A DNA stretch of 34,844 nt from a virus (Duplodnaviria; Heunggongvirae; Uroviricota; Caudoviricetes), in IMG/VR virus record IMGVR_UViG_2579778601_000008, positions 1 to 34,844 of that record; one strand, written 5' to 3'. This document shows positions 1,927 through 31,748 of the stretch, piece by piece. Position 1 is the stretch's first letter, and each line of letters begins with the position of its first letter. The notes under the pieces were generated by a model that saw only the letters and a list, made by a program, of their open reading frames with translations, searched no databases and was not told where the DNA came from. The position numbers and the translations under genes were made by a program.

Positions 1927-2423
1927 CAGTGATGACGCTCAATCTCGTCGAAAAACAGCCAGCAGCTATGCGCCGGATAATTGGTAAGCATCTTGCCGTC
2001 CCTCGTTGGCAGGATACATGTGATTATTATAATCAGATGATGGAGCGCGAACGGCTAACAGTTTGCTTTCATGCGCAGTTAAAACAACGTCACGCAACGA
2101 TGCGTTTTGAAGAAATGAACGACGTCGAACGTGAACGGCTGGTTTGTGCAATTGATGAATTGCGTGGGGCATTCTCAAAACGCCGTCAGGTTGGCGCAAG
2201 TGAGTATGCATATATTAGTTTTTTAACAGTCAGTCAGCGTCGTACTTTATTTATGCATGCCGGATTGACTGAAAAAGAATTCAACCAGCCATACTGGCGA
2301 ATTAATGAAGAATCATGTTACTGGCGTGATGCTTTATTCCGTGCATTACGTGAACTATTCAGTCTGTTTGAGTATGCACCGACAATTCTGACGTCGGTAA
2401 AACCAGAGCAATATTTGCATTAA
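1923..2423 (+). CDS. B: Replication protein B (helicase-loader-like)
   Basis: 166-aa ORF, same length and position as P2 gene B; start overlaps the upstream stop. Confidence 0.85.
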   Translation: MTVMTLNLVEKQPAAMRRIIGKHLAVPRWQDTCDYYNQMMERERLTVCFHAQLKQRHATMRFEEMNDVERERLVCAIDELRGAFSKRRQVGASEYAYISFLTVSQRRTLFMHAGLTEKEFNQPYWRINEESCYWRDALFRALRELFSLFEYAPTILTSVKPEQYLH

Positions 2424-2486
2424 ATAATTAACCAGAGTTTTTAACGCACTTAATCGTGCGGGGCTTCTTTTTGCCTGGAGAAAGTC

Positions 2487-2711
2487 ATGCATACAGTTTC
2501 TGAAAATCAGTGCGGTAAATACGCATTACTGCTGCAACAGGCCAGAACCGAAGCACAGGCCGACGCTGCGACGCGCTTTTCTTCTCATCTTGACGCCATG
2601 ATTCGCCATATCACAAAGGCGGAGTTATCCCGCGTGGAGATAGTCGAGCTGCTCAGTCAGGAGTCGGAAAAATTTCACAATATCGGATTGTCTCGCGGGG
2701 AGGTGCTTTGA
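2487..2711 (+). CDS. Small early protein (position of P2 orf80)
   Basis: 74-aa ORF in the early operon between B and A; stop overlaps the next start. Confidence 0.6.
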
Positions 2712-3010
2712 TGTCCTGTTCTCATTCAGTTGTATTACTGAATAACGCCTTAAAAATCGCCGTTATGAAAAATGGCGATTTGTCTCTTATTCAACTTTGT
2801 CTTGATAAAGAAAAACGCGACATCACTGAATCTGTTATCGCGATTTATCAGAATGAATTAAACCTCCTGTCTGATGTGGTCAATTTACTTGTTAAACGCG
2901 CTGTATTCCACAAGCAAATTTCCTCCGTGGATGAACTGACAAAATTAACGACAGAACTTGCCAGTTATTGCGCTGATGTATCCAGGAAACTTAACGATAA
3001 AAGGAGCTGA
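2708..3010 (+). CDS. Small early protein (position of P2 orf81)
   Basis: 100-aa ORF, translationally coupled to neighbours. Confidence 0.6.
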
Positions 3011-3012
3011 TA

Positions 3013-3237
3013 ATGCCGGACAACGTAGATTTTATTCAGGAACAACAGACTGAATTACTGGAGCGCCAGATTAACGCGGCAAGGGTAAAACATTGCGGTG
3101 CTTCTGCGCTGGTTTGCGAAGAGTGTGACGCGCCAATACCTGCTGCCCGTCGTGCGGCTTATCCGTCAGCCACGCGTTGTGTTTCCTGTCAGTCAGTCTT
3201 TGAAGCAAAAAACAAACATTACCGGAGAACGGCATGA
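3013..3237 (+). CDS. DksA/TraR-type C4 zinc-finger protein (position of P2 orf82)
   Basis: 74-aa ORF with CxxC...CxxC spacing (CEECDAP...RCVSCQ) typical of TraR/DksA zinc fingers. Confidence 0.7.
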   Translation: MPDNVDFIQEQQTELLERQINAARVKHCGASALVCEECDAPIPAARRAAYPSATRCVSCQSVFEAKNKHYRRTA

Positions 3238-3509
3238 GTATTCGTATTGAAATTGGCGAACGTTATGTCGTTACCAGTGACAGCTTTCAGTTTATTCTCC
3301 ACGAGAAAAAGAGAGCGGAAAGCGGTAAAAACGCCGGTCAGGAATGGCTGTCGGTGGTTGGTTATTACCCGAAATTAAGCCAGCTCGTTTCCGGCCTGAT
3401 GCATCACGATATTCTGACCGGAAGCGCAAAGTCTTTTGCTGATTTAAACGTGCAGGTTGAGCAACTCAGCAAGCGTTGTTCAGAGGCTTTTGGCTCATAT
3501 GGCCGTTAA
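3234..3509 (+). CDS. Small early protein (position of P2 orf83)
   Basis: 91-aa ORF; its stop overlaps the start of gene A. Confidence 0.6.
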   Translation: MSIRIEIGERYVVTSDSFQFILHEKKRAESGKNAGQEWLSVVGYYPKLSQLVSGLMHHDILTGSAKSFADLNVQVEQLSKRCSEAFGSYGR

Positions 3510-5775
3510 AGCCTCCGGGCGTTTTGTCCCTCCGTCAGCATTTGCCGCAGGCACCGGTAAGGCGTTTACCGGTGCTTATGCATGGAACGCGCCACGCGAG
3601 GCTGTCGGGCGCGAAAGACCCCTTACACGTGACGAGATGCGTCAGGTGCAAGGGGTTTTATCCACGATTAACCGCCTGCCTTACTTTTTGCGCTCGCTGT
3701 TTACTTCACGCTATGACTACATCCGGCGCAATAAAAGCCCGGTGCACGGGTTTTATTTTCTCACATCCACTTTTCAGCGTCGTTTATGGCCGCGCATTGA
3801 GCGTGTGAATCAGCGCCATGAAATGAACACCGACGCGTCGTTGCTGTTTCTGGCAGAGCGTGGCCATTATGCGCGTCTGCCGGGGATGAATGACAAGGAG
3901 CTGAAAAAGTTTGCCGCCCGTATCTCATCGCAGCTTTTCATGATGTATGAGGAACTCTGCGATGCCTGGGTGGATGCGCATGGCGAAAAAGAATCGCTGT
4001 TTACGGATGAGGCGCAGGCTCACCTCTATGGTCATGTTGCTGGTGCTGCACGTGCTTTCAATATTTCCCCTCTCTACTGGAAAAAATACCGTAAAGGGCA
4101 GATGACCACGAGGCAGGCATATTCTGCCATTGCCCGTCTGTTTAACGATGAGTGGTGGACCCATCAGCTTAAAGGCCAGCGTATGCGCTGGCATGAGGCG
4201 TTACTGATTGCTGTCGGGGAGGTCAATAAAGACCGTTCTCCTTATGCCAGTAAACATGCCATTCGTGATGTGCGTGCACGCCGCCAGGCAAATCTGGAAT
4301 TTCTTAAATCGTGTGATCTCGAAAACAGGGAAACCGGCGAGCGCATCGACCTTATCAGTAAGGTGATGGGCAGTATTTCTAATCCTGAAATTCGCCGGAT
4401 GGAGCTGATGAACACCATTGCCGGTATTGAGCGTTACGCCGCAGCAGAGGGTGATGTGGGGATGTTTATCACGCTGACCGCGCCGTCAAAGTATCACCCG
4501 ACACGTCAGGTCAGAAAAGGCGAAAGTAAAACCGTCCAGCTAAATCACGGCTGGAACGATGAGGCATTTAATCCAAAGGATGCGCAGCGTTATCTCTGCC
4601 GTATCTGGAGCCTGATGCGCACGGCATTCAAGGATAATGATTTACAGGTCTACGGTTTGCGTGTCGTCGAGCCACACCACGACGGAACGCCGCACTGGCA
4701 TATGATGCTTTTTTGTAATCCGCGCCAGCGTAACCAGATTATCGAAATCATGCGTCGCTATGCGCTCAAAGAGGATGGCGACGAAAGAGGAGCCGCGCGA
4801 AACCGTTTTCAGGCAAAACACCTTAACCGGGGCGGTGCTGCGGGGTATATCGCGAAATACATCTCAAAAAACATCGACGGCTATGCACTGGATGGTCAGC
4901 TCGATAACGATACCGGCAGGCCGCTGAAAGACACTGCTGCGGCTGTTACCGCATGGGCGTCAACGTGGCGCATCCCGCAATTTAAAACGGTTGGTCTGCC
5001 GACAATGGGGGCTTACCGTGAACTACGCAAATTGCCGCGCGGCGTCAGCATTGCTGATGAGTTTGACGAGCGCGTCGAGGCTGCACGCGCCGCCGCAGAC
5101 AGTGGTGATTTTGCGTTGTATATCAGCGCGCAGGGTGGGGCAAATGTCCCGCGCGATTGTCAGACTGTCAGGGTCGCCCGTAGCCCGTCGGATGACGTTA
5201 ACGAGTACGAGGAAGAGGTCGAGAGGGTGGTCGGCATTTACGCGCCGCATCTCGGCGCGCGTCATATTCATATCACCAGAACGACGGACTGGCGCATTGT
5301 GCCGAAAGTTCCGGTCGTTGAGCCTTTGACTTTAAAAAGCGGCATCGCCGCGCCTCGGAGTCCTGTCAATAACTGTGGAAAGCTCACCGGTGGTGATACT
5401 TCGTTACCGGCTCCCACACCTTCTGAGCACGCCGCAGCAGTGCTTAATCTGGTTGATGACGATGTTATCGAATGGAATGACCCGGAGGTCGTGAGGGCGC
5501 TCAGGGGCGCATTAAAACACGACCGGAGAACGCCAAACCGTCAGCAAAGAAACGGAAGCCCGTTAAAACCGCATGAAATTGCACCATCGGCCAGACTGAC
5601 CCGGTCGGAACGATTGCAAATTACCCGTATCCGCGTTGATCTCGCTCAGAACGGTATCAGGCCGCAACGATGGGAGCTTGAGGCGCTGGCGCGTGGCGCG
5701 ACCGTAAATTATGACGGGAAACCTTTCACTTATCAGGTCGCTGATGATTGGCCGGGATTTTTGTTACCCATTTGA
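3499..5775 (+). CDS. A: Replication initiation protein A (rolling-circle nicking endonuclease)
   Basis: Start chosen at internal ATG 3499 (MAVKASGRFVPP...), which matches the P2 gpA N-terminus as I recall it; ~758 aa; follows B and the small orfs. Confidence 0.9.
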   Translation: MAVKASGRFVPPSAFAAGTGKAFTGAYAWNAPREAVGRERPLTRDEMRQVQGVLSTINRLPYFLRSLFTSRYDYIRRNKSPVHGFYFLTSTFQRRLWPRIERVNQRHEMNTDASLLFLAERGHYARLPGMNDKELKKFAARISSQLFMMYEELCDAWVDAHGEKESLFTDEAQAHLYGHVAGAARAFNISPLYWKKYRKGQMTTRQAYSAIARLFNDEWWTHQLKGQRMRWHEALLIAVGEVNKDRSPYASKHAIRDVRARRQANLEFLKSCDLENRETGERIDLISKVMGSISNPEIRRMELMNTIAGIERYAAAEGDVGMFITLTAPSKYHPTRQVRKGESKTVQLNHGWNDEAFNPKDAQRYLCRIWSLMRTAFKDNDLQVYGLRVVEPHHDGTPHWHMMLFCNPRQRNQIIEIMRRYALKEDGDERGAARNRFQAKHLNRGGAAGYIAKYISKNIDGYALDGQLDNDTGRPLKDTAAAVTAWASTWRIPQFKTVGLPTMGAYRELRKLPRGVSIADEFDERVEAARAAADSGDFALYISAQGGANVPRDCQTVRVARSPSDDVNEYEEEVERVVGIYAPHLGARHIHITRTTDWRIVPKVPVVEPLTLKSGIAAPRSPVNNCGKLTGGDTSLPAPTPSEHAAAVLNLVDDDVIEWNDPEVVRALRGALKHDRRTPNRQQRNGSPLKPHEIAPSARLTRSERLQITRIRVDLAQNGIRPQRWELEALARGATVNYDGKPFTYQVADDWPGFLLPI

Positions 5776-5992
5776 GTAAAAATACAGCGTGATTTTATAT
5801 GTCTTTGAATGGATTATGCGAAGCACCTCTAAGGTAGATGAGGAGCAATAGCGTGTTGAATCAGAAGGCTAAATTGTATTGAATCGTTAGCATGTAATTG
5901 AAGGCAGCTATTTGATTCGAGTCATAAAAGAGCATCTATTTCGGTTAATAAAACCATTGCGAGTGACTTTATGTCGAAGCATAATTCATCTC

Positions 5993-6006
5993 GAGCGAAG
6001 TCTTGC
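5993..6006. repeat. 14-bp direct repeat GAGCGAAGTCTTGC, copy 1 (preceded by GAGTGACT at 5961)
   Basis: Exact 14-mer recurs at 6257-6270; both copies are preceded by GAGTGACT. Confidence 0.8.
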
Positions 6007-6035
6007 TAGTCTTTCATCGGATTGATGACGGGCGC

Positions 6036-6067
6036 AAAAAAACCACCCTGGCAGGTGGTTTTTTTGT
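6036..6067. terminator. Bidirectional intrinsic terminator
   Basis: GC-rich hairpin (AACCACC..GGTGGTT) flanked by A7 upstream and T7 downstream; lies downstream of gene A (+) and of the small minus-strand ORF. Confidence 0.7.
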
Positions 6068-6077
6068 TTGAAGCATA

Positions 6078-6191
6078 CTAAAGAAAAATACTTACATGGA
6101 TATTACTGACGTTTACTGACAAACCACTCGGACTACCATATGGATAGCCAAAGAGGGCCAGAACGAGAATGCAGTAATAGCACTTCTTCAT
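6078..6191 (-). CDS. Candidate small hydrophobic peptide (37 aa), possible type-I-toxin-like or small membrane protein
   Basis: My own translation, not in the supplied ORF track (below its length cutoff): MKKCYYCILVLALFGYPYGSPSGLSVNVSNIHVSIFL. AGGAGG lies 4 nt upstream of the ATG; the stop codon is directly followed by the intrinsic terminator. Confidence 0.35.
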   Translation of the reverse strand: MKKCYYCILVLALFGYPYGSPSGLSVNVSNIHVSIFL

Positions 6192-6256
6192 ATCGCCTCC
6201 TGTAAGCAGAGGGCAATTTCCGCCGATATATGCGCTTCTAAGGCGGAGTGACTATT

Positions 6257-6270
6257 GAGCGAAGTCTTGC
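6257..6270. repeat. 14-bp direct repeat GAGCGAAGTCTTGC, copy 2 (preceded by GAGTGACT at 6246)
   Basis: Exact match to 5993-6006; the two copies bracket the terminator and the 37-codon ORF. Confidence 0.8.
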
Positions 6271-6912
6271 CCTGAAATAATGCTCTGTTTAAACGCAAAG
6301 TGATCTGGCATATCACCGAACAGAGGACCTGAACAACACAACATATAGTATGTCGTTGTTTCTGGTTGCATTTTATGTTGTGTAATACTGGTTTTGCATC
6401 AAGGATGTTTGAGCTTTTTTTGATATAGCTCAAAGTAAAAAGCAGAGACTACGGATGATAAGGTCTTGAAAGCAATGTAAATTTTTTAAAGTTGTGAGTG
6501 GCTAGAAATGCACAGTTTCAATATGGCGGATTTAAACAAGTAATTAAAAATAGCGACATAAATTCCAATAAAATCATTAAGTTGCGTTTTCTGTGGAAAC
6601 TTCGGTGACTCTGAAATTTTCTTTTAGTGTCGCTGAGGTTTAACAACGCGCTGCGCAAGTAGTTAGTGTTTTTTTAACTCAATATTCTGATTTATAAGGT
6701 TTTTTATAAATCGTGGACTGGTTGCGCGTATTCATCTCGTGTTATCAGCAAAGATAAGCTCTATATGCAGAACGGAATGCATATATGATGTCGAAAATGT
6801 TATGGGAAAACGTGGATTAGTGTTATAGTAATGGCTGAAAAACAGCCTTGACATAAAATAACAACTGTGATATGGCTGTGCATACTTAACTTTTTTAACG
6901 TAGGAGGCAACC

Positions 6913-7398
6913 ATGAGCTATGCAGCTAAAAAACTGCTTGACCGCTATTGGGATCGCCGACTACCTGTCGATCCGTTTAAGCTTGCTAAAGCGTGGGGTG
7001 CTCGTGTTGAAGCACTTGAGGAATCGGCTTATAACAACGATGGGTTAAGCGGTCTGGCTGTCATCAAAAAGGGTGTCCATAGGATTTATTTTGATTCTAG
7101 TGAACATTCTAATCGTCAACGTTTTACTGTTGCACACGAGTTAGGTCATCATGTGCTGGGGCATACCCAGGACGGAGAGTACCATCGGGATAATGTCGGG
7201 AATTATTCAACAGGTGCTCGTGATTACCGTGAGGTTGAAGCAAACAAGTTTGCTGCTGAGTTGTTAATGCCTGAGTCTGCTATACGTCAATTGGTATCCA
7301 GAGAAGGTATTGATAGCACTTTGAGATTAGCAAGCATCTTTAATGTATCAGAAGCCGCTATGCATTGGCGCTTAAAGAGCTTAGGAATGGCTTATTAA
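6913..7398 (+). CDS. ImmA/IrrE-family (DUF955-like) zinc metallopeptidase, no attached HTH domain
   Basis: 161-aa ORF with HEXXH motif in ...FTVAHELGHHVLGH...; AGGAGG 6 nt upstream of the ATG; AT-rich upstream region with TTGACA at 6848. Confidence 0.75.
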   Translation: MSYAAKKLLDRYWDRRLPVDPFKLAKAWGARVEALEESAYNNDGLSGLAVIKKGVHRIYFDSSEHSNRQRFTVAHELGHHVLGHTQDGEYHRDNVGNYSTGARDYREVEANKFAAELLMPESAIRQLVSREGIDSTLRLASIFNVSEAAMHWRLKSLGMAY

Positions 7399-7425
7399 TT
7401 AGCCTTTAACTTTTAACCTGTTTAA

Positions 7426-7462
7426 AATCACCTTTACGTTTGTACATGTAAGGGTGATTTTT
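7426..7462 (+). terminator. Hairpin plus T-tract between the peptidase and membrane-protein genes (possible attenuator or partial terminator)
   Basis: Inverted repeat AAATCACCTTT...AAGGGTGATTT followed by TTTTTT running into the ATG at 7465. Confidence 0.4.
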
Positions 7463-7464
7463 TT

Positions 7465-8064
7465 ATGGCTGATATTGATTTATCTGGACAGTCCCCAGAG
7501 CAAGGAACCACTCCTAAGGGCGATTCAGATCCTGATATCCTTATAAGGCGAGATAGACGGGATGGTATAGAGCGTAGAAGTATGCGATTAGTGCTCTCTG
7601 CCGTTGTGCTTTGTTTTGCTTGTACATTTCTATGGCAGGGGCTTAACTTTGCTTTGGCTGTTGGAAATGGCTTGCTGGAAGCGAAAAGCAGTATTGCCGC
7701 AGCGATAACACAAAAAGTAGATACACAAACTTGTGTTTCAGCAGAAAAATGTTCTGCTTTATCTTCGGATCCGAAGATGGCTGATGAGAGGATAACACCA
7801 TCTTCAGACACTAATAAAGTTAGAAAATCTATTTCTGGTTTATCCACCGATTGGTTATCGGCCAGTTCTCTAATAGCTATTGTTGCATTCATCCTTGGTG
7901 TGGGTTTAACTTTGCTTTTGACTCTTCTTAAATCAGCATTTCAACACCCGACAGATAAAGACTTTAGAACAAAGTCGACATCTAATACTATTGAGTTGGC
8001 CACGCCAATCAGTGAATTAATAATTGGTGTTCTGAATATAATTAAAGACAAACTATCTAAGTAA
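7465..8064 (+). CDS. Predicted two-TM membrane protein of unknown function
   Basis: 199-aa ORF; charged N-terminus (RRDRRDGIERR); hydrophobic segments LVLSAVVLCFACTFLWQGLNFALAV and SLIAIVAFILGVGLTLLLTLL; two Cys in the intervening loop; amphipathic C-terminus; co-oriented with the peptidase gene. Confidence 0.6.
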   Translation: MADIDLSGQSPEQGTTPKGDSDPDILIRRDRRDGIERRSMRLVLSAVVLCFACTFLWQGLNFALAVGNGLLEAKSSIAAAITQKVDTQTCVSAEKCSALSSDPKMADERITPSSDTNKVRKSISGLSTDWLSASSLIAIVAFILGVGLTLLLTLLKSAFQHPTDKDFRTKSTSNTIELATPISELIIGVLNIIKDKLSK

Positions 8065-8146
8065 AGCATTAGTTGTGATTTTTTATTGGTTTTAGTGATA
8101 ATACATCTCCAGTACTTATTGTTACTGGAGAGTATTTTTAGTCGTT

Positions 8147-9088
8147 TTATATTTTTAATGTTAGTGAATGATATTCACGAGAGTTCACGTTCGATGTGAT
8201 GTAATCGGGGGCGTTAACACCAAGAATCGCAACGAGTAATCGGCAAATTAAAGCCTGCATTTGTTGTAATATGTCATCTCCATATTGATAATTGTTAATA
8301 GTGGTAAAGCCAAGTGGTTGACCATGAAACATAGCTTCATGAAAGTTTTCATTGCGGATGTTTGTAATGTTTTTTTTGCCTGTAACCCATGATGGTCGTG
8401 GTATTCCATAAGTTTTGCAGATCCACTTCAAGCGCCTGGAGTGATTTAGAGTCTTTTCTGTACACTTGTTCTTTTCTGCCCATGTTAAAGCAAAGCAACT
8501 ATCCAGTGCCATATAAAGATACTGGAATTTTTCGAAGCTAAGGTATTGTGGGTTTTGGGATAAAAATAGTGCATGCACTATTGCTGCTATATTTATTGGT
8601 GCGTGTTTGGTTTTTGTCTCGCTAGACATGTATTTGAGTGCTAATTCTATAACCTCTTTTTCAGAGCACTTGACCAGAATAAAGTCAGTTAATTTGCTGG
8701 GTTTTATTGGGGTTGCGTCTAAAAAACCGGCATCAGTAGTTGTTAATCTTATCCCTTTGAAAAAAGACAGACACCACACAGCAAAATTGAGAGTTTCTAG
8801 TGAAGATGTATTTTTTAATTTTAGTGAGTGTGTTTTGGGTAAGCCAAATACTCGTTGGCTAAAAGGCATTGTGGATATGCCTCCATTGAGGTTATATACT
8901 TCTTGGTTTCCTGGGTATATCCAACCGTTAATAACATTTCTGTGATTGTTTATAAGATTTGTTTTTTCCGCTAGACCGGGTAAAGTAAGTAAAGAAAAAT
9001 CATCAGTTTCAACGTTAACTTCTACTGGATAGTATCCAAACTCAGCTTCAATATCATTGGATTGCTGTTCGTCAACTTTACCTTGCAT
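8147..9088 (-). CDS. Hypothetical 313-aa protein with RNxxxH motif (possible HEPN-type nuclease)
   Basis: Long ORF in a markedly AT-rich stretch, convergent with the two upstream genes; GGAG 6 nt upstream of ATG; motif RNENFH near residue 245; no P-loop or HEXXH seen. Confidence 0.65.
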   Translation of the reverse strand: MQGKVDEQQSNDIEAEFGYYPVEVNVETDDFSLLTLPGLAEKTNLINNHRNVINGWIYPGNQEVYNLNGGISTMPFSQRVFGLPKTHSLKLKNTSSLETLNFAVWCLSFFKGIRLTTTDAGFLDATPIKPSKLTDFILVKCSEKEVIELALKYMSSETKTKHAPINIAAIVHALFLSQNPQYLSFEKFQYLYMALDSCFALTWAEKNKCTEKTLNHSRRLKWICKTYGIPRPSWVTGKKNITNIRNENFHEAMFHGQPLGFTTINNYQYGDDILQQMQALICRLLVAILGVNAPDYITSNVNSREYHSLTLKI

Positions 9089-26294: not shown

Positions 26295-26570
26295 ATGAAC
26301 AAAGAAAATGTGATTACCCTGGACAATCCGGTCAAGCGTGGTGAGCAGGTTATCAAACAGGTCACGCTGATGAAACCTAATGCCGGGACGCTTCGCGGTG
26401 TCAGTCTGGCTTCGGTCGCACACTCCGAAGTCGATGCACTTATTAAGGTGCTGCCGCGCATGACGGCACCGATGCTGACCGAGCAGGAAGTCGCCGCGCT
26501 GGAACTGCCTGACCTTGTGGAACTGGCCGGTAAGGTGGTCGGTTTTTTGTCGCCGAACTCGGTGCAGTGA
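26295..26570 (+). CDS. E: Tail assembly chaperone E
   Basis: 91-aa ORF upstream of T; contains the T6G slippery site near its 3' end. Confidence 0.85.
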   Translation: MNKENVITLDNPVKRGEQVIKQVTLMKPNAGTLRGVSLASVAHSEVDALIKVLPRMTAPMLTEQEVAALELPDLVELAGKVVGFLSPNSVQ

Positions 26571-26882: not shown

Positions 26883-27632
26883 TCACTGATCTCCTTCGGT
26901 CAACGGAGATTGTATTTTCCGCATTGATTCTCCTTTAAGTTCGATCTTGATACTGCCATGAACCAGTCGATCTAGGATGGCATCCGCATGTGTGGAGTCT
27001 CCGATCATTTTGTACCAGTTTTCCACCGGCAACTGGCTCACTACGATGATTGAGCCTCGTTGGTACATCAGATCCACTATTTCCAGCAGGTCGCTACGCT
27101 GTTCTGATGAGAGAGGTTCCAGCCCCCAGTCATCCAGAAGCAGCAGATCGCTATTATTCAGCCTGGTCAAAAGTTTGCTGTATCTTCCATCAGCATGCCC
27201 CTGATAGCACTGTTCCATCAGCGCTTTAAGGCGATAATAGTAGACCTTGTATCCCTGTCGGCAGGCATTATGACCAAGTGCACATGCCAGGAACGTTTTA
27301 CCGCTGCCGGTGGCCCCGGTCAGTAAAATATTTTGTTTCAGGGTTAACCAGTTTCCCTGACTGAGTGAACGGATGAGGGCCCTGTCCAGCCCTCTATTGT
27401 TACGATAATCCAGCTTTGATAACTCAGCATTAAGTCTGAACCGTGCATGTTTGATCAGACGCTCTGCCTTCCTGTTTTCACGGCAGGTTAGTTCTTCTGC
27501 TGTCAGTAATGACAGGCGTTCTTCGAAGCCCAGCTCCTGGTATGTGCCCGGTTGAGCAAGTTGCTTTTTAAGCGCATCACGGAAGCCGGTGAGTTTAAGT
27601 GCGGTCAGTTGTTCGTAAAGATGATTCATCAT
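26883..27632 (-). CDS. istB: IS21-family helper ATPase IstB
   Basis: 249-aa ORF with Walker A (GATGSGKT) and Walker B (LLLLDDWG) motifs, typical of IstB. Confidence 0.9.
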   Translation of the reverse strand: MMNHLYEQLTALKLTGFRDALKKQLAQPGTYQELGFEERLSLLTAEELTCRENRKAERLIKHARFRLNAELSKLDYRNNRGLDRALIRSLSQGNWLTLKQNILLTGATGSGKTFLACALGHNACRQGYKVYYYRLKALMEQCYQGHADGRYSKLLTRLNNSDLLLLDDWGLEPLSSEQRSDLLEIVDLMYQRGSIIVVSQLPVENWYKMIGDSTHADAILDRLVHGSIKIELKGESMRKIQSPLTEGDQ

Positions 27633-27643
27633 TGGATCCCGTA

Positions 27644-29185
27644 TCAGTGGTAATACTCACTGCCGCGTACGTTTTCGTGTTCCATCGTGGATAACAGATC
27701 TGGTTTTGGATCCTGAACAGGTTGTTTATCCAGACCTTTTTCCAGGATCGATTTAATACCTGACAGACGCCATACCTTTGTTTTCAGAGCTCTTGCACAT
27801 GCTGCATTAAGTCTGGCTTTACTGTATTTTTTATGAAGGTTCAGGAGTCCAAGGCAGAAGCGATAGCTTTGTTCCGGATGTGGACGAGAGTTCAGTATAT
27901 GAAGCACATAACTATGAGTTTCACTGCCTATGTGCCCCGCCCATTCCAGAAGACGCTCTGGCGTCCAGGTGGCATGCTGTCGATGAGCTTCAGGCATGTG
28001 CTCGTTGCGGGTACTGTAGCCATAAGTACGCTTGCGCGGGTGCACAGCAACCTCCTGCCCCTGATTGAAGAGTCTTACCAGTTCTCCGGAGATCCATGCT
28101 TCCAGTTGCTGGCCTAACAGCGAACATGGAACCGAGTAGTAATGTTTGTCGATTTCCACGTGGTAATCGGCATGAACTCTGACTTTCTTCACCAGGGTGT
28201 AACTGTAACTGGCTTCAGGAAGAGGCTTCAGTGCGGGTTTATCAAGCTGGATGAAGAGTTCTGCACGTGAATAACCCAACTTCTGCATTATTTTGTTATT
28301 CAGTCTTTCCAGCAACTCCCGAATGCGCTGATTAAGCGATGCAAGGCTGTAGAAGATCTCATGCCTGATTCGGGCCATGATCCAGCGTTCAACAACCTGA
28401 ACGCCAACTTCAGCTTTGGCTTTATCTTTCGGTTTACGTGGCCGCGCAGGCAAAACTGCGACATTATAATGCTCAAGCATCTGCTGGTAGGTAGGGTTAA
28501 CGTCAGGATCATACTTACATGCCCTGGATGTGGCGCTTTTCAGATTGTCCGGAACAACAAGTTCAGGAACGCCACCCAACCACTGGAAGCAGCGAACATG
28601 ACTCATCACCCAGTCTTCAAGCTGCTGAGACCAGGTGGCCTCTGCCCATGTGTAACTTGATGCCCCGAGAACAGCTACGATGACCTGAGCAGTTCTTATT
28701 TCTCCGGTCTCAGGGTCGGTAACGCCAACGGTAGGTCCACAGTAATCAACGAAAAGTTTTTCGCCAGCTTTATGTACCTGACGCATTGATGGTGAAGTGG
28801 TTTTGAGCCATTCACGGTACATCCGGCAGTAATGGTTATAGCTGTAAAAACCGCCTGGATTACGCTCACAGTATTCTTCCCAGAGTAGCTGCAGCGTCAC
28901 GCATTTATTACGCAGTTCCCGGTGTACTGTAGCCCAGTCAGGCAGAGAGTGCTTCTTCATCTTAACCTGGGTCTGAAGGAACGCATGTTTTAGTTTTGTA
29001 TCATCCCATCCTGTAGGTAAGGGCCACTGCTTTATGCCAAGTTGAGCCGCCCGATTAGCATATCTGGATACAACGGAAGGGGAGATTGCAAGACTACGAC
29101 CAATTTGTCGATGGCTGAGTCCAACACCGTATTTAAGCCTAAGAATTTCTTTAAGTTTTCTCATAGAAATTGGAACTGTTGGCAT
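27644..29185 (-). CDS. istA: IS21-family transposase IstA
   Basis: 513-aa ORF with an N-terminal HTH and DDE-type integrase core, immediately upstream of istB. Confidence 0.9.
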   Translation of the reverse strand: MPTVPISMRKLKEILRLKYGVGLSHRQIGRSLAISPSVVSRYANRAAQLGIKQWPLPTGWDDTKLKHAFLQTQVKMKKHSLPDWATVHRELRNKCVTLQLLWEEYCERNPGGFYSYNHYCRMYREWLKTTSPSMRQVHKAGEKLFVDYCGPTVGVTDPETGEIRTAQVIVAVLGASSYTWAEATWSQQLEDWVMSHVRCFQWLGGVPELVVPDNLKSATSRACKYDPDVNPTYQQMLEHYNVAVLPARPRKPKDKAKAEVGVQVVERWIMARIRHEIFYSLASLNQRIRELLERLNNKIMQKLGYSRAELFIQLDKPALKPLPEASYSYTLVKKVRVHADYHVEIDKHYYSVPCSLLGQQLEAWISGELVRLFNQGQEVAVHPRKRTYGYSTRNEHMPEAHRQHATWTPERLLEWAGHIGSETHSYVLHILNSRPHPEQSYRFCLGLLNLHKKYSKARLNAACARALKTKVWRLSGIKSILEKGLDKQPVQDPKPDLLSTMEHENVRGSEYYH

Positions 29186-29378: not shown

Positions 29379-31748
29379 GCGAGTAAGTCGCTGTCGGGGG
29401 ATATCCGGGAAACACAAAAATCACTGCGCGAGCTGAATGGTCACGCATCCCGTATTGAGGGATTTCGCAAGACTAGCGCACAGCTTGCCGTGACTGGTCA
29501 TGCACTTGAAAAGGCACGGCAGGAAGCCGAAGCCCTTGCCACACAGTTTAAAAACACCGAACGTCCGACCCGTGCTCAGGCGAAAGTGCTGGAATCCGCA
29601 AAGCGTGCGGCGGAGGACTTACAGGCGAAATATAACCGCCTGACGGATTCCGTTAAACGCCAGCAGCGGGAACTGGCCGTTGTGGGAATTAATACCCGCA
29701 ATCTTGCACATGATGAGCAGGGACTGAAAAACCGTATCAGTGAAACCACCGCACAGCTTAACCGTCAGCGCGACGCGCTGGCGCGTGTCAGTGCGCAACA
29801 GGCAAAACTTAACGCAGTAAAACAGCGTTATCAGGCCGGAAAGGAACTGGCCGGAAATATGGCCTCAGTGGGCGCTGCCGGTGTGGGGATTGCTGCTGCG
29901 GGAACGATGGCCGGAGTTAAGCTGCTGATGCCCGGTTATGAGTTTGCGCAGAAAAACTCAGCATTGCAGGCCGTGCTCGGAGTGGCAAAAGACTCCGCCG
30001 AAATGACCGCACTCCGCAAACAGGCGCGCCAGCTCGGCGACAATACCGCAGCCTCGGCGGATGATGCAGCCGGTGCACAGATTATCATTGCGAAAGCCGG
30101 TGGGGATGCTGCGGCTATTCAGGCGGCAACGCCGGTCACACTGAATATGGCACTGGCAAACCAGCGGTCGATGGAAGAAAACGCGCAACTGTTGCTGGGG
30201 ACTAAGGCATCCTTTCAACTGTCAAATGATGATGTCAGCCATGTGGGCGACGTGTTGTCGGCAACGATGAATAAGTCGGCGGCTGATTTTCAGGGACTCA
30301 GTGATGCACTGACTTACCTCGGTCCGGTTGCGAGGACGGCAGGTGTAAGTCTTGAACAGGCAGCGGCCATGACAGGTGTGCTGCATGACAATAACATCAG
30401 GGGGTCAATGGCGGGTACGGGTGGCAGTGCCGTTGTCACCCGATTACAGGCACCGACTGGAAAAGCATGGGATGCACTCAAAGAGCTTGGCGTTAAAACC
30501 TCGGACAAAAAGGGAAATATGCGTCCGTTGTTCACCATTCTGAAAGAGATTCAGGCCAGCTTTGATAAACACAAGCTGGGAACGTCTCAGAAGGGGGAAT
30601 ACCTTAAAACCATTTTTGGTGAGGAAGCCCTGAAATCAGCGAACGTTTTACTGGCAGCGGCAGCAAGCGGAAAACTGGATAAGCTGACCGCCACGCTGAA
30701 AGCCTCGGACGGTAAAACGGAAGAGCTGGTTAAAATCATGCAGGATAACCTCGGTGGTGACTTTAAGGAGTTTCAGTCCGCTTATGAGGCGGTGGGGACT
30801 GACCTGTTTGACCAGCAGGAAGGCACACTGCGTAAGCTCACGCAGACGGCCACAAAGTATGTGTTAAAACTCGACGGCTGGATCCAGAAAAACAAATCAC
30901 TGGCGTCAACCATCGGCATCATTGCCGGTGGCGCGCTGGCGCTGATTGGCATCATCGGTGCAATTGGTCTTGTAGCCTGGCCGGTTATCACCGGCATCAA
31001 TGCCATCATCGCGGCAGCAGGCGCAATGGGGGCAATCTTCACGACGGTTGGCAGTGCTGTTATGACCGCCATCGGGGCTATTAGCTGGCCGGTTGTGGCC
31101 GTGGTGGCTGCCATTGTCGCCGGGGCGTTGCTTATCCGTAAATACTGGGAGCCTGTCAGCGCATTCTTTGGCGGTGTGGTTGAAGGGCTGAAAGCGGCAT
31201 TTGCGCCGGTGGGGGAACTGTTCACGCCACTGAAGCCGGTGTTTGACTGGCTGGGCGAAAAGTTACAGGCCGCGTGGCAGTGGTTTAAAAACCTGATTGC
31301 CCCGGTCAAAGCCACCCAGGACACCCTGAACCGTTGCCGTGACACGGGCGTCATGTTCGGGCAGGCACTGGCTGACGCGTTGATGCTGCCGCTTAATGCG
31401 TTCAACAAACTGCGCAGTGGTATTGACTGGGTACTGGAAAAACTCGGTGTTATCAACAAAGAGTCAGACACACTTGACCAGACCGCCGCCAGAACTCATG
31501 CCGCCACGTATGGTACCGGTGACTATATTCCGGCGACCAGCTCTTATGCAGGCTATCAGGCTTATCAGCCGGTCACGGCACCGGCTGGCCGCTCTTATGT
31601 AGACCAGAGTAAAAACGAATATCACATCAGCCTGACGGGTGGTACTGCGCCGGGGACACAGCTTGACCGCCAGTTACAGGACGCGCTCGAAAAATACGAG
31701 CGGGATAAACGTGCGCGCGCCCGTGCCAGCATGATGCATGACGGTTAA
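29379..31748 (+). pseudogene. T: Tape measure protein T, C-terminal portion (frame open from the IS junction)
   Basis: The frame resumes right after the IS (...KSLSGDIRETQKSLRELNGHASRIEGFRKTSAQLAVTGHALEKARQ...) and continues ~790 codons with the hydrophobic segments typical of tape measure proteins. Confidence 0.85.

Follow-up and report, generated by a model that had tools for sequence, protein, structure and literature searches.

A candidate RNA-regulated type I toxin-antitoxin-like module next to gene A of P2-like prophages and on plasmids

The DNA analyzed here, referred to as the window, is the entire stretch of 34,844 nucleotides that makes up positions 1 to 34,844 of the IMG/VR record IMGVR_UViG_2579778601_000008, and represents a P2-like (Peduovirus) prophage. 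Gene A of this prophage, which codes for the replication endonuclease, ends at position 5775. It is followed by an unannotated gap of 1137 bp, a gene for a CapP-like ImmA/IrrE peptidase, two unknown genes and the portal gene. The gap contains a cassette of about 470 bp (5957-6433) with two convergent units, a small-protein gene with a long leader on the minus strand and a predicted small RNA (sRNA) gene on the plus strand, which run into one terminator (Table 1). The core of this region, from about 6036 to 6480, is conserved far above its flanks.

Table 1. Positions of the features of the cassette in the window
Feature	Position	Strand	Basis or remark
sRNA promoter TTGCGA-17-CATAAT, with upstream AATAAAA element	5957..5985	(+)	promoter scan and conservation
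Predicted sRNA, candidate antitoxin, ~78 nt	5993..6070	(+)	seed, SL1, terminator
Direct-repeat copy 1, sRNA 5' seed GAGCGAAGUCUUGC	5993..6006	(+)	repeat search and homologues
Bidirectional intrinsic terminator, common to mRNA and sRNA	6035..6066	both strands	CCACC/GGTGG stem and A7/T7, loop TGCCAG
Small-protein gene, 37 codons and TAG	6078..6191	(-)	encodes MKKCYYCILVLALFGYPYGSPSGLSVNVSNIHVSIFL
Shine-Dalgarno sequence AGGAGG	6196..6201	(-)	spacer cgat, 4 nt, to ATG 6191-6189
Structured 5' UTR, ~172 nt from predicted TSS	6192..6363	(-)	covariation
Direct-repeat copy 2, sRNA target in mRNA leader GCAAGACUUCGCUC	6257..6270	(-)	repeat search and homologues
NrdR-box-like element ATACTATATGTTGTGT	6336..6351	(-)	within transcribed leader
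Predicted -10 TAAAAT, nrdDG -10 position	6370..6375	(-)	aligned to Salmonella treC-nrdD and the E. coli nrdDG probe (PMC12176259)
FNR-box-like site 1 TTGATGCAAAACCA	6389..6402	(-)	centre ~32.5 bp upstream of predicted TSS
FNR-box-like site 2 TTGAGCTATATCAA	6420..6433	(-)	31 bp upstream of site 1

Of 5426 complete E. coli genomes, 150 have the part of the gap that is proximal to gene A, which is about 765 bp long. Its presence is independent of the downstream content, which can be the ImmA set, SIR2, an AAA ATPase, an IS or nothing. As about 1682 of the genomes have the 3' end of a P2-like gene A, the element is carried by about 8% of the E. coli P2-like prophages. Homologues were collected using exact DNA patterns derived from the terminator together with BLAST, and 82 instances of the module were found, which represent 48 distinct sequences. 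Beyond the P2-like phages of E. coli, the module is present in a metagenomic viral contig (L019), in an Enterobacter MAG (L085) and in a region of Kluyvera georgiana that looks like an inovirus, being flanked by Zot, secretin and G2P genes (L086). It is also found on Leclercia IncF plasmids, where it adjoins traI and dsbA (L087, L114), on a Salmonella Newport plasmid (L113) and on about 400 Klebsiella IncFIB/FII conjugative plasmids. No annotated feature lies under the match in the plasmid or chromosomal records, the plasmid gene tables being incomplete. The small open reading frame (ORF) had been placed inside a defence hotspot when the sequence was read on its own. It does lie at the gene A edge of this hotspot, but it is not hotspot cargo: it belongs to a self-contained cassette that is carried by plasmids and by the inovirus-like region as well. 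A scan with the leader pattern CTGTTCGGTGATNTGCCA gave mostly chance matches to environmental viral contigs, L019 being the only real homologue, and a scan of GTDB for the terminator led mainly to small ColE1-like plasmids and contaminant contigs, with L085, L086 and L087 as the only true homologues.

The coordinates of the 37-codon ORF on the minus strand, and the AGGAGG sequence 4 nt ahead of its ATG, are confirmed as the sequence-only reading gave them; the TAG stop codon occupies 6080-6078. There are 68 ORFs of at least 20 amino acids in 4.5 kb, and the length of this one alone is within chance. The case for a gene is therefore built on the comparison with related sequences. Homologous ORFs, of which 24 are distinct, have 37-39 codons and occupy the same position in all the homologues found. 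Nearly all of them are preceded, at the same place, by a purine run that resembles a Shine-Dalgarno sequence (AGGAGG, GGGAGG, CGGAGG, AGGTGG or GGAGAC). A comparison of synonymous with nonsynonymous substitutions, which had been proposed earlier as a check of the gene, comes out in its favour: the frame and the length are kept in all homologues, and the pairwise dN/dS ratio of the 24 distinct sequences is 0.07-0.37 in frame and 1.3 in the +1 and +2 frames, the synonymous sites being saturated between clades. Counts of variable sites per codon position are 21/13/33 and 20/5/24. These observations suggest that the ORF is almost certainly a real protein-coding gene.

The peptide of the window has an N-terminal MKK, an invariant cysteine at position 7, a hydrophobic stretch and a C-terminal half in which polar and hydrophobic residues alternate. 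In the alignment of the family the N-terminus follows the pattern M-[KND]-[KR], and the invariant cysteine, at position 7 or 8, is followed by the hydrophobic run and by a hinge resembling G-x-Q-S-G-W. Polar and aliphatic residues alternate in the C-terminal half, and the C-terminus is uncharged. This pattern persists even when the identity is as low as 16-24%. The hydrophobic stretch comprises only about 12-14 residues, which is short for a transmembrane helix, and the AlphaFold single-sequence model, with two helices and a pLDDT of 68, is of low confidence. Seven diverse members of the family have no match in Pfam or NCBIfam at E values of up to 10, and the peptides have no match in PHROGs or PADLOC. 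Among the papers open to text search, none was found with the peptide, seed or terminator sequence. The ORF had been called unannotated. This description is correct for RefSeq/PGAP, where the region is left blank, but not for a few records that list the peptide as a hypothetical protein, such as WFG40939.1 (Salmonella phage MET_P1_103_31) and ECW_m2278 (E. coli W). The comparative evidence points to a small (less than about 60 amino acids), hydrophobic and translated product, of the kind that a type I toxin gene encodes.

Downstream of the stop codon, the two units share a perfect inverted repeat of 13 bp, CAAAAAAACCACC/GGTGGTTTTTTTG, with its arms at 6035-6047 and 6054-6066. The stop codon had been described as abutting a hairpin at 6036-6067. 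The hairpin is real, but it begins 11 nt past the stop codon. A consensus terminator scan missed it, as its T-run has become part of the stem, which is extended by A/T pairs. Across the homologues there is no change in the stem, in the loop or in at least six of the adjoining A and T residues, although synonymous sites in the ORF are saturated, and the outer flanks are slightly variable. The conservation of the loop suggests that it has a function besides termination, for example in a kissing contact. The same hairpin, including the 6-nt loop TGCCAG, also serves as the RNAI-type terminator in some ColE1-like plasmids (L027).

The sRNA gene approaches the terminator from the other side. The end of its -10 hexamer is separated by 7 nt from the seed GAGCGAAGTCTTGC, which is followed by a stem-loop, SL1 (6009-6033), and by the shared terminator. 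All clades keep the promoter hexamers with their 17-18-bp spacing, the AATAAAA element and the interval of 7 nt before GAGCG, and the sequence of the spacer varies. Alignment of 19 distinct sequences gives a common fold that consists of a 16-nt unpaired 5' end, SL1 and the terminator, and the fold of the single sequence has a z-score of -4.05. Compensatory changes occur in seven of the nine SL1 pairs, and none of 500 shuffles reaches the observed score; pairing amounts to 95%, compared with 49-63% in slid controls. The numerous G·U pairs of SL1 are compatible with the plus strand only. The sRNA unit overlaps the mRNA unit only at the terminator. In L085 (CAUQTV010000013.1, 4380-6060), an insertion of about 0.9 kb parts the small-protein and sRNA genes and the terminator is duplicated. 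The displaced sRNA unit is intact, and it matches the leader target across 16 nt.

The seed of the sRNA and its target in the mRNA leader are the two copies of a perfect 14-nt direct repeat. As the copies would be transcribed in opposite directions, the two predicted RNAs are complementary. The distance from the target to the ATG downstream of it is 64-67 nt in all homologues. A duplex of 14-17 bp is retained in all 12 distinct combinations of mRNA and sRNA. Four positions of the duplex covary (G-C/G·U/A-U, C-G/U·G/U-A, A-U/G·U/G-C and C-G/U-A), and all differences that affect one side only are wobble pairs in the permitted orientation. Within its core the duplex has a single mismatch, which affects the terminal pair of one haplotype, and the outermost extension pair is unpaired in half of the 12 combinations. 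The proportion of paired cells is 96%, compared with 31-46% in slid controls. The covariation score is equalled by 3 of 500 shuffles, and three of the double changes are supplied by two clades. Because the independent events are few and some of the shuffles score as high, the evidence of intermolecular covariation is good but not overwhelming. A search of the opposite strand for an antisense RNA had been suggested. The opposite strand does carry an sRNA gene with a conserved promoter and a covarying stem-loop; its orientation, however, is convergent rather than antisense to the ORF, and its product is predicted to pair upstream of the ORF. Judged by the comparative evidence, the sRNA gene and its pairing with the leader very probably exist, which would provide the small non-coding RNA complementary to the toxin mRNA that adjoins the toxin gene in type I systems.

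The leader itself appears to be a structured RNA. It is predicted to contain helix A (6283-6325), a long-range helix B (6267-6272 with 6211-6216) and hairpin C (6242-6247 with 6219-6224). Double changes are found in 13 of 26 pairs, and the observed covariation is reached by none of 500 shuffles. Between the P2 clade and the other clades, the position of helix B differs by 2-3 nt. The 5' end of the sRNA target falls within this helix, so that binding of the sRNA is expected to remodel the leader. In the minimum-energy fold of the window sequence, the Shine-Dalgarno sequence and the AUG are paired with the region of the stop codon. The homologues use other partners, and neither a conserved helix that sequesters the Shine-Dalgarno sequence nor a conserved 5'-3' fold-back was found among them.

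The upstream end of the cassette resembles a host promoter, that of nrdDG, which encodes the anaerobic ribonucleotide reductase. The module promoter aligns with the intergenic region between treC and nrdD of Salmonella over about 65-125 nt at 78-82% identity (BLAST), and the aligned stretch spans both FNR boxes, the TAAAAT hexamer and the downstream NrdR box. The sequence past the promoter, in contrast, is unrelated to the nrdD leader. At FNR-box-like site 1, Salmonella nrdD and most homologues have TTGATGCAAATCAC; at site 2, the homologues share TTGTTCTNNATCAA with Salmonella nrdD. The module thus has a pair of FNR boxes, about 31 bp from each other and upstream of TAAAAT, as in promoters of the nrdDG type. 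On this similarity the mRNA promoter is derived from the host nrdDG promoter, and the start site of the mRNA is predicted at about 6363. Further upstream, on the minus strand at 6434-6500, the window, all module homologues and the region upstream of Salmonella nrdD have a TTTACA motif that follows an A-rich tract; this motif could be a second promoter or another regulatory site.

The regulation of nrdDG is described in published work (PMC2892513). The NrdR-box-like element in the leader agrees with box 1 of E. coli nrdHIEF at 13 of 16 positions (probe sequences from PMC12176259), and it forms an inverted repeat with 6374-6392. The two 16-bp NrdR boxes spaced 15 bp apart that are typical of nrdDG are not found in the window: the upstream box is degenerate (about 5-7 of 16 positions), and the linker between the boxes is about 25 bp instead of 15 bp, placing them about one helical turn further apart than in nrdDG. 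The upstream box is intact in the Leclercia and Klebsiella homologues, and the Leclercia copy L087 has both boxes with the canonical 15-bp linker. The degenerate upstream box and the longer linker make the control of the window copy by NrdR doubtful, and joint control of this copy by FNR and NrdR can be put forward only tentatively.

It is conceivable that the true gene is a longer in-frame ORF of 88-97 codons (MQPETTT... or MLC[CF]SG...), of which the window copy, with a TAG at 6252-6254, would be a pseudogene. A 39-codon ORF at 6252-6371 is indeed in frame with the 37-codon ORF, and the stop between them is replaced by AAG or CAG in one E. coli haplotype, so that gene callers yield proteins of 88-97 amino acids. 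The extension, however, is open in this one haplotype group only: the window has a TAG, the L005 type has a TAG followed by a TAA, and other clades show indels and different lengths. The upstream ATGs have no Shine-Dalgarno sequence, and the first of them is located upstream of the predicted start site of transcription. Furthermore, the stretch in question shows RNA-structure covariation, and the Shine-Dalgarno sequence and the ATG of the short ORF are retained in nearly all homologues. The mostly closed frame, the upstream ATGs without Shine-Dalgarno sequences and the behaviour of the stretch as a structured RNA led us to reject the longer reading, which is hardly credible. Scarcely more probable is the proposal that the ORF is real and that the sRNA is not functional. 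The direct repeat would then be a scar of a duplication or two protein-binding sites, its copies could have been homogenized by gene conversion, and the plus-strand hairpins would terminate the early operon of gene A. In P2-like phages the hairpin does lie 260 nt past gene A on the same strand, and could terminate its transcription. However, the unit that comprises the promoter, seed, SL1 and terminator persists on plasmids and in the inovirus-like region, where gene A does not precede it, and it is intact in L085 despite its displacement by 0.9 kb. The G·U pairs within the covarying SL1, which suit only the plus strand, and the wobble-compatibility of all single-copy differences of the repeat in the orientation of an RNA duplex also speak for an RNA.

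A third proposal accepts both the sRNA and its control of the small protein, and questions only the toxicity of the latter. The protein might be a membrane or periplasmic effector that is made when oxygen is absent or nucleotides are limiting, for instance one that is involved in superinfection exclusion or that modulates a membrane protein. The peptide is under purifying selection over its whole length, the C-terminal half with its alternating polar residues included. This suggests that it acts through a specific interaction and not by damaging membranes in a general way, and the specific regulatory boxes of the mRNA promoter are also in line with such a role. On the other hand, the antisense arrangement, the sRNA promoter of the constitutive type, the stand-alone mobility and the long structured leader are hallmarks of type I systems in the literature on par and TimP/TimR. 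A non-toxic effector is therefore considered unlikely, although less so than the two preceding proposals. The ORF is probably the protein-coding half of a compact two-gene, RNA-regulated module that resembles type I toxin-antitoxin systems, and the balance of the comparative evidence leans towards a bona fide toxin-antitoxin pair. The original suggestion of a type I toxin or a small membrane regulator with signals of its own is supported by the dN/dS values, by the conserved sRNA gene and by the covarying duplex of 14-17 bp in the leader.

Of the known systems, par of the Enterococcus faecalis plasmid pAD1 (RNA I/RNA II, encoding Fst) has the most similar layout. It is composed of convergent promoters, a shared bidirectional terminator with complementary loops, and direct repeats that give rise to complementarity between the 5' parts of the RNAs (PMC7472228). 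The module likewise has convergent promoters, a common bidirectional terminator and oppositely transcribed direct repeats through which the 5' part of the sRNA would pair with the 5' part of the mRNA; both systems encode a small protein of 33-39 amino acids and are carried by mobile elements. The module differs from par in having one repeat instead of two (DRa and DRb), which is located 64-67 nt upstream of the ATG and leaves the Shine-Dalgarno sequence and the start codon uncovered. A motif resembling YUNR (CUGG) is in the loop of the sRNA, unlike par, where it is in the loop of the mRNA. The peptide, which has no Pfam match and an uncharged C-terminus, lacks the Fst/Ldr signature of a PXXXG helix and a charged C-terminal tail. 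The hosts of the module are Enterobacterales, and its mRNA promoter is of nrdDG origin.

A long 5' UTR and a short duplex (14-17 bp in the module) far upstream of the ribosome-binding site are shared with tisB/istR-1 and zorO/orzO, in which the antitoxin gene likewise lies beside the toxin gene and is not antisense to the ORF. The 5' UTR of zorO is 174 nt long. In these two systems, however, the sRNA gene is divergent and upstream, whereas in the module it is convergent with a shared terminator, and there is no sequence similarity. The timP/TimR pair of Salmonella (the RyfA locus) resembles the module in its protein of about 38 amino acids, in the N-terminal segment similar to a Sec-type signal anchor, in the polar tail and in the adjacent sRNA. 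TimP is located in the inner membrane and retains its signal sequence there (PMC7667032). Unlike the mobile module, timPR is a locus of the core genome; its sRNA, TimR, is encoded divergently and pairs close to the 5' end of the mRNA. A search for RF00126 (RyfA) in 5000-7500 gave no match at E values of up to 1. In the general Rfam scan no family was above its threshold, and the sub-threshold matches (RNAI, Phe leader, P9) were driven by the terminator; ColE1 RNAI (RF00106) scored 27.8 bits against a threshold of 47, the resemblance being limited to the terminator hairpin.

By combining these comparisons, it is possible to propose how the toxin-antitoxin-like module would operate. Transcription from the nrdDG-derived promoter would produce a minus-strand mRNA of about 330 nt, which contains the 172-nt leader, the strong Shine-Dalgarno sequence and the 37-codon ORF and ends at the intrinsic terminator. 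The constitutive-looking sigma-70 promoter on the opposite strand would direct the synthesis of the convergent sRNA of about 78 nt, which stops at the same terminator. The complementary loops of the terminator could make the first kissing contact, as in par of pAD1, and the single-stranded 5' end of the sRNA would then pair with 14-17 nt of the leader at a site 65 nt ahead of the start codon. We infer that this pairing is inhibitory: it would block translation, either by occluding a standby site or by refolding the leader, and/or it would trigger cleavage of the duplex. The small membrane-directed peptide would in this way be kept off unless the synthesis of its mRNA exceeds that of the sRNA. 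It is probable that the peptide becomes inserted in the inner membrane by means of its N-terminal segment, which resembles a signal anchor, and that it is harmful in excess. The stand-alone spread of the cassette across P2-like prophages, IncF plasmids and the inovirus-like region is typical of addiction or toxin-antitoxin modules.

A more speculative possibility, to which we attach only a small probability, is that the module acts as a kill switch that senses the nucleotide pool and oxygen. With the captured nrdDG promoter, synthesis of the toxin mRNA would require both active FNR and the release of NrdR from the DNA, as upon a drop in dATP. Replication stress, the depletion of dNTPs by a competing defence system or an infecting phage could then shift the balance between the mRNA and the sRNA, and the resulting growth arrest or abortive infection would shield the resident prophage or plasmid.

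The module looks like a new family of RNA-controlled toxin-antitoxin modules of phages and plasmids. If this is true, the type I systems of enterobacteria would gain a toxin family and an antitoxin RNA that are both new, and the module would be the first case among Gram-negative bacteria of the par/Fst-style layout with convergent genes, a shared terminator and a direct repeat. The module is common in clinically important replicons, such as the approximately 400 Klebsiella IncF plasmids and the P2-like prophages of E. coli ST131 type, where it may aid the maintenance of the plasmid or prophage, and it is seldom annotated. With its captured nrdDG promoter, the module provides a putative link between the dNTP and oxygen status of the cell and the expression of a toxin by a mobile element. 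The module also accounts for "empty" DNA beside P2 gene A, which extends over hundreds of base pairs and is conserved above its flanks.

Several additional observations concern the carriers of the module. The metagenome contig Ga0268256_1001162 (L157) contains two diverged copies about 2.9 kb apart, with their terminators at 3412-3439 and 6332-6359. Their peptides differ (MNRWCLC... and MNRVCLC...), and the pairs of seed and target differ slightly. These paralogues could let cross-talk between modules be probed. On the Salmonella plasmid pCFSAN000924 (L113), an annotated gene for a DinQ-like type I toxin, dqlB (285-380), is located about 2 kb from the module.

The hotspot cargo of the window (6913-9088) begins with the CapP-like ImmA/IrrE M78 peptidase (PADLOC capP, 1e-30), which has no obvious XRE/CapH partner. 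Neither Pfam nor PADLOC has a family that matches the two proteins encoded at 7465-8064 (+) and 8147-9088 (-), and the cargo may be an uncharacterised defence set. Elsewhere in the window, an element of the IS21 family on the minus strand (26883-29185) encodes IstA (513 amino acids, with rve and a Mu-transposase C-terminal domain) and IstB (249 amino acids). Its insertion separates gene E (tail assembly chaperone, 26295-26570) from gene T (tape measure, 29490-31748), and the prophage is therefore probably defective. Many complete E. coli assemblies (for example NZ_CP076305.1 and NZ_CP107128.1; matches at 2278-3414) begin exactly at the start codon of a P2-like gene A, apparently having been rotated by start-fixing software to the phage replication gene instead of dnaA.
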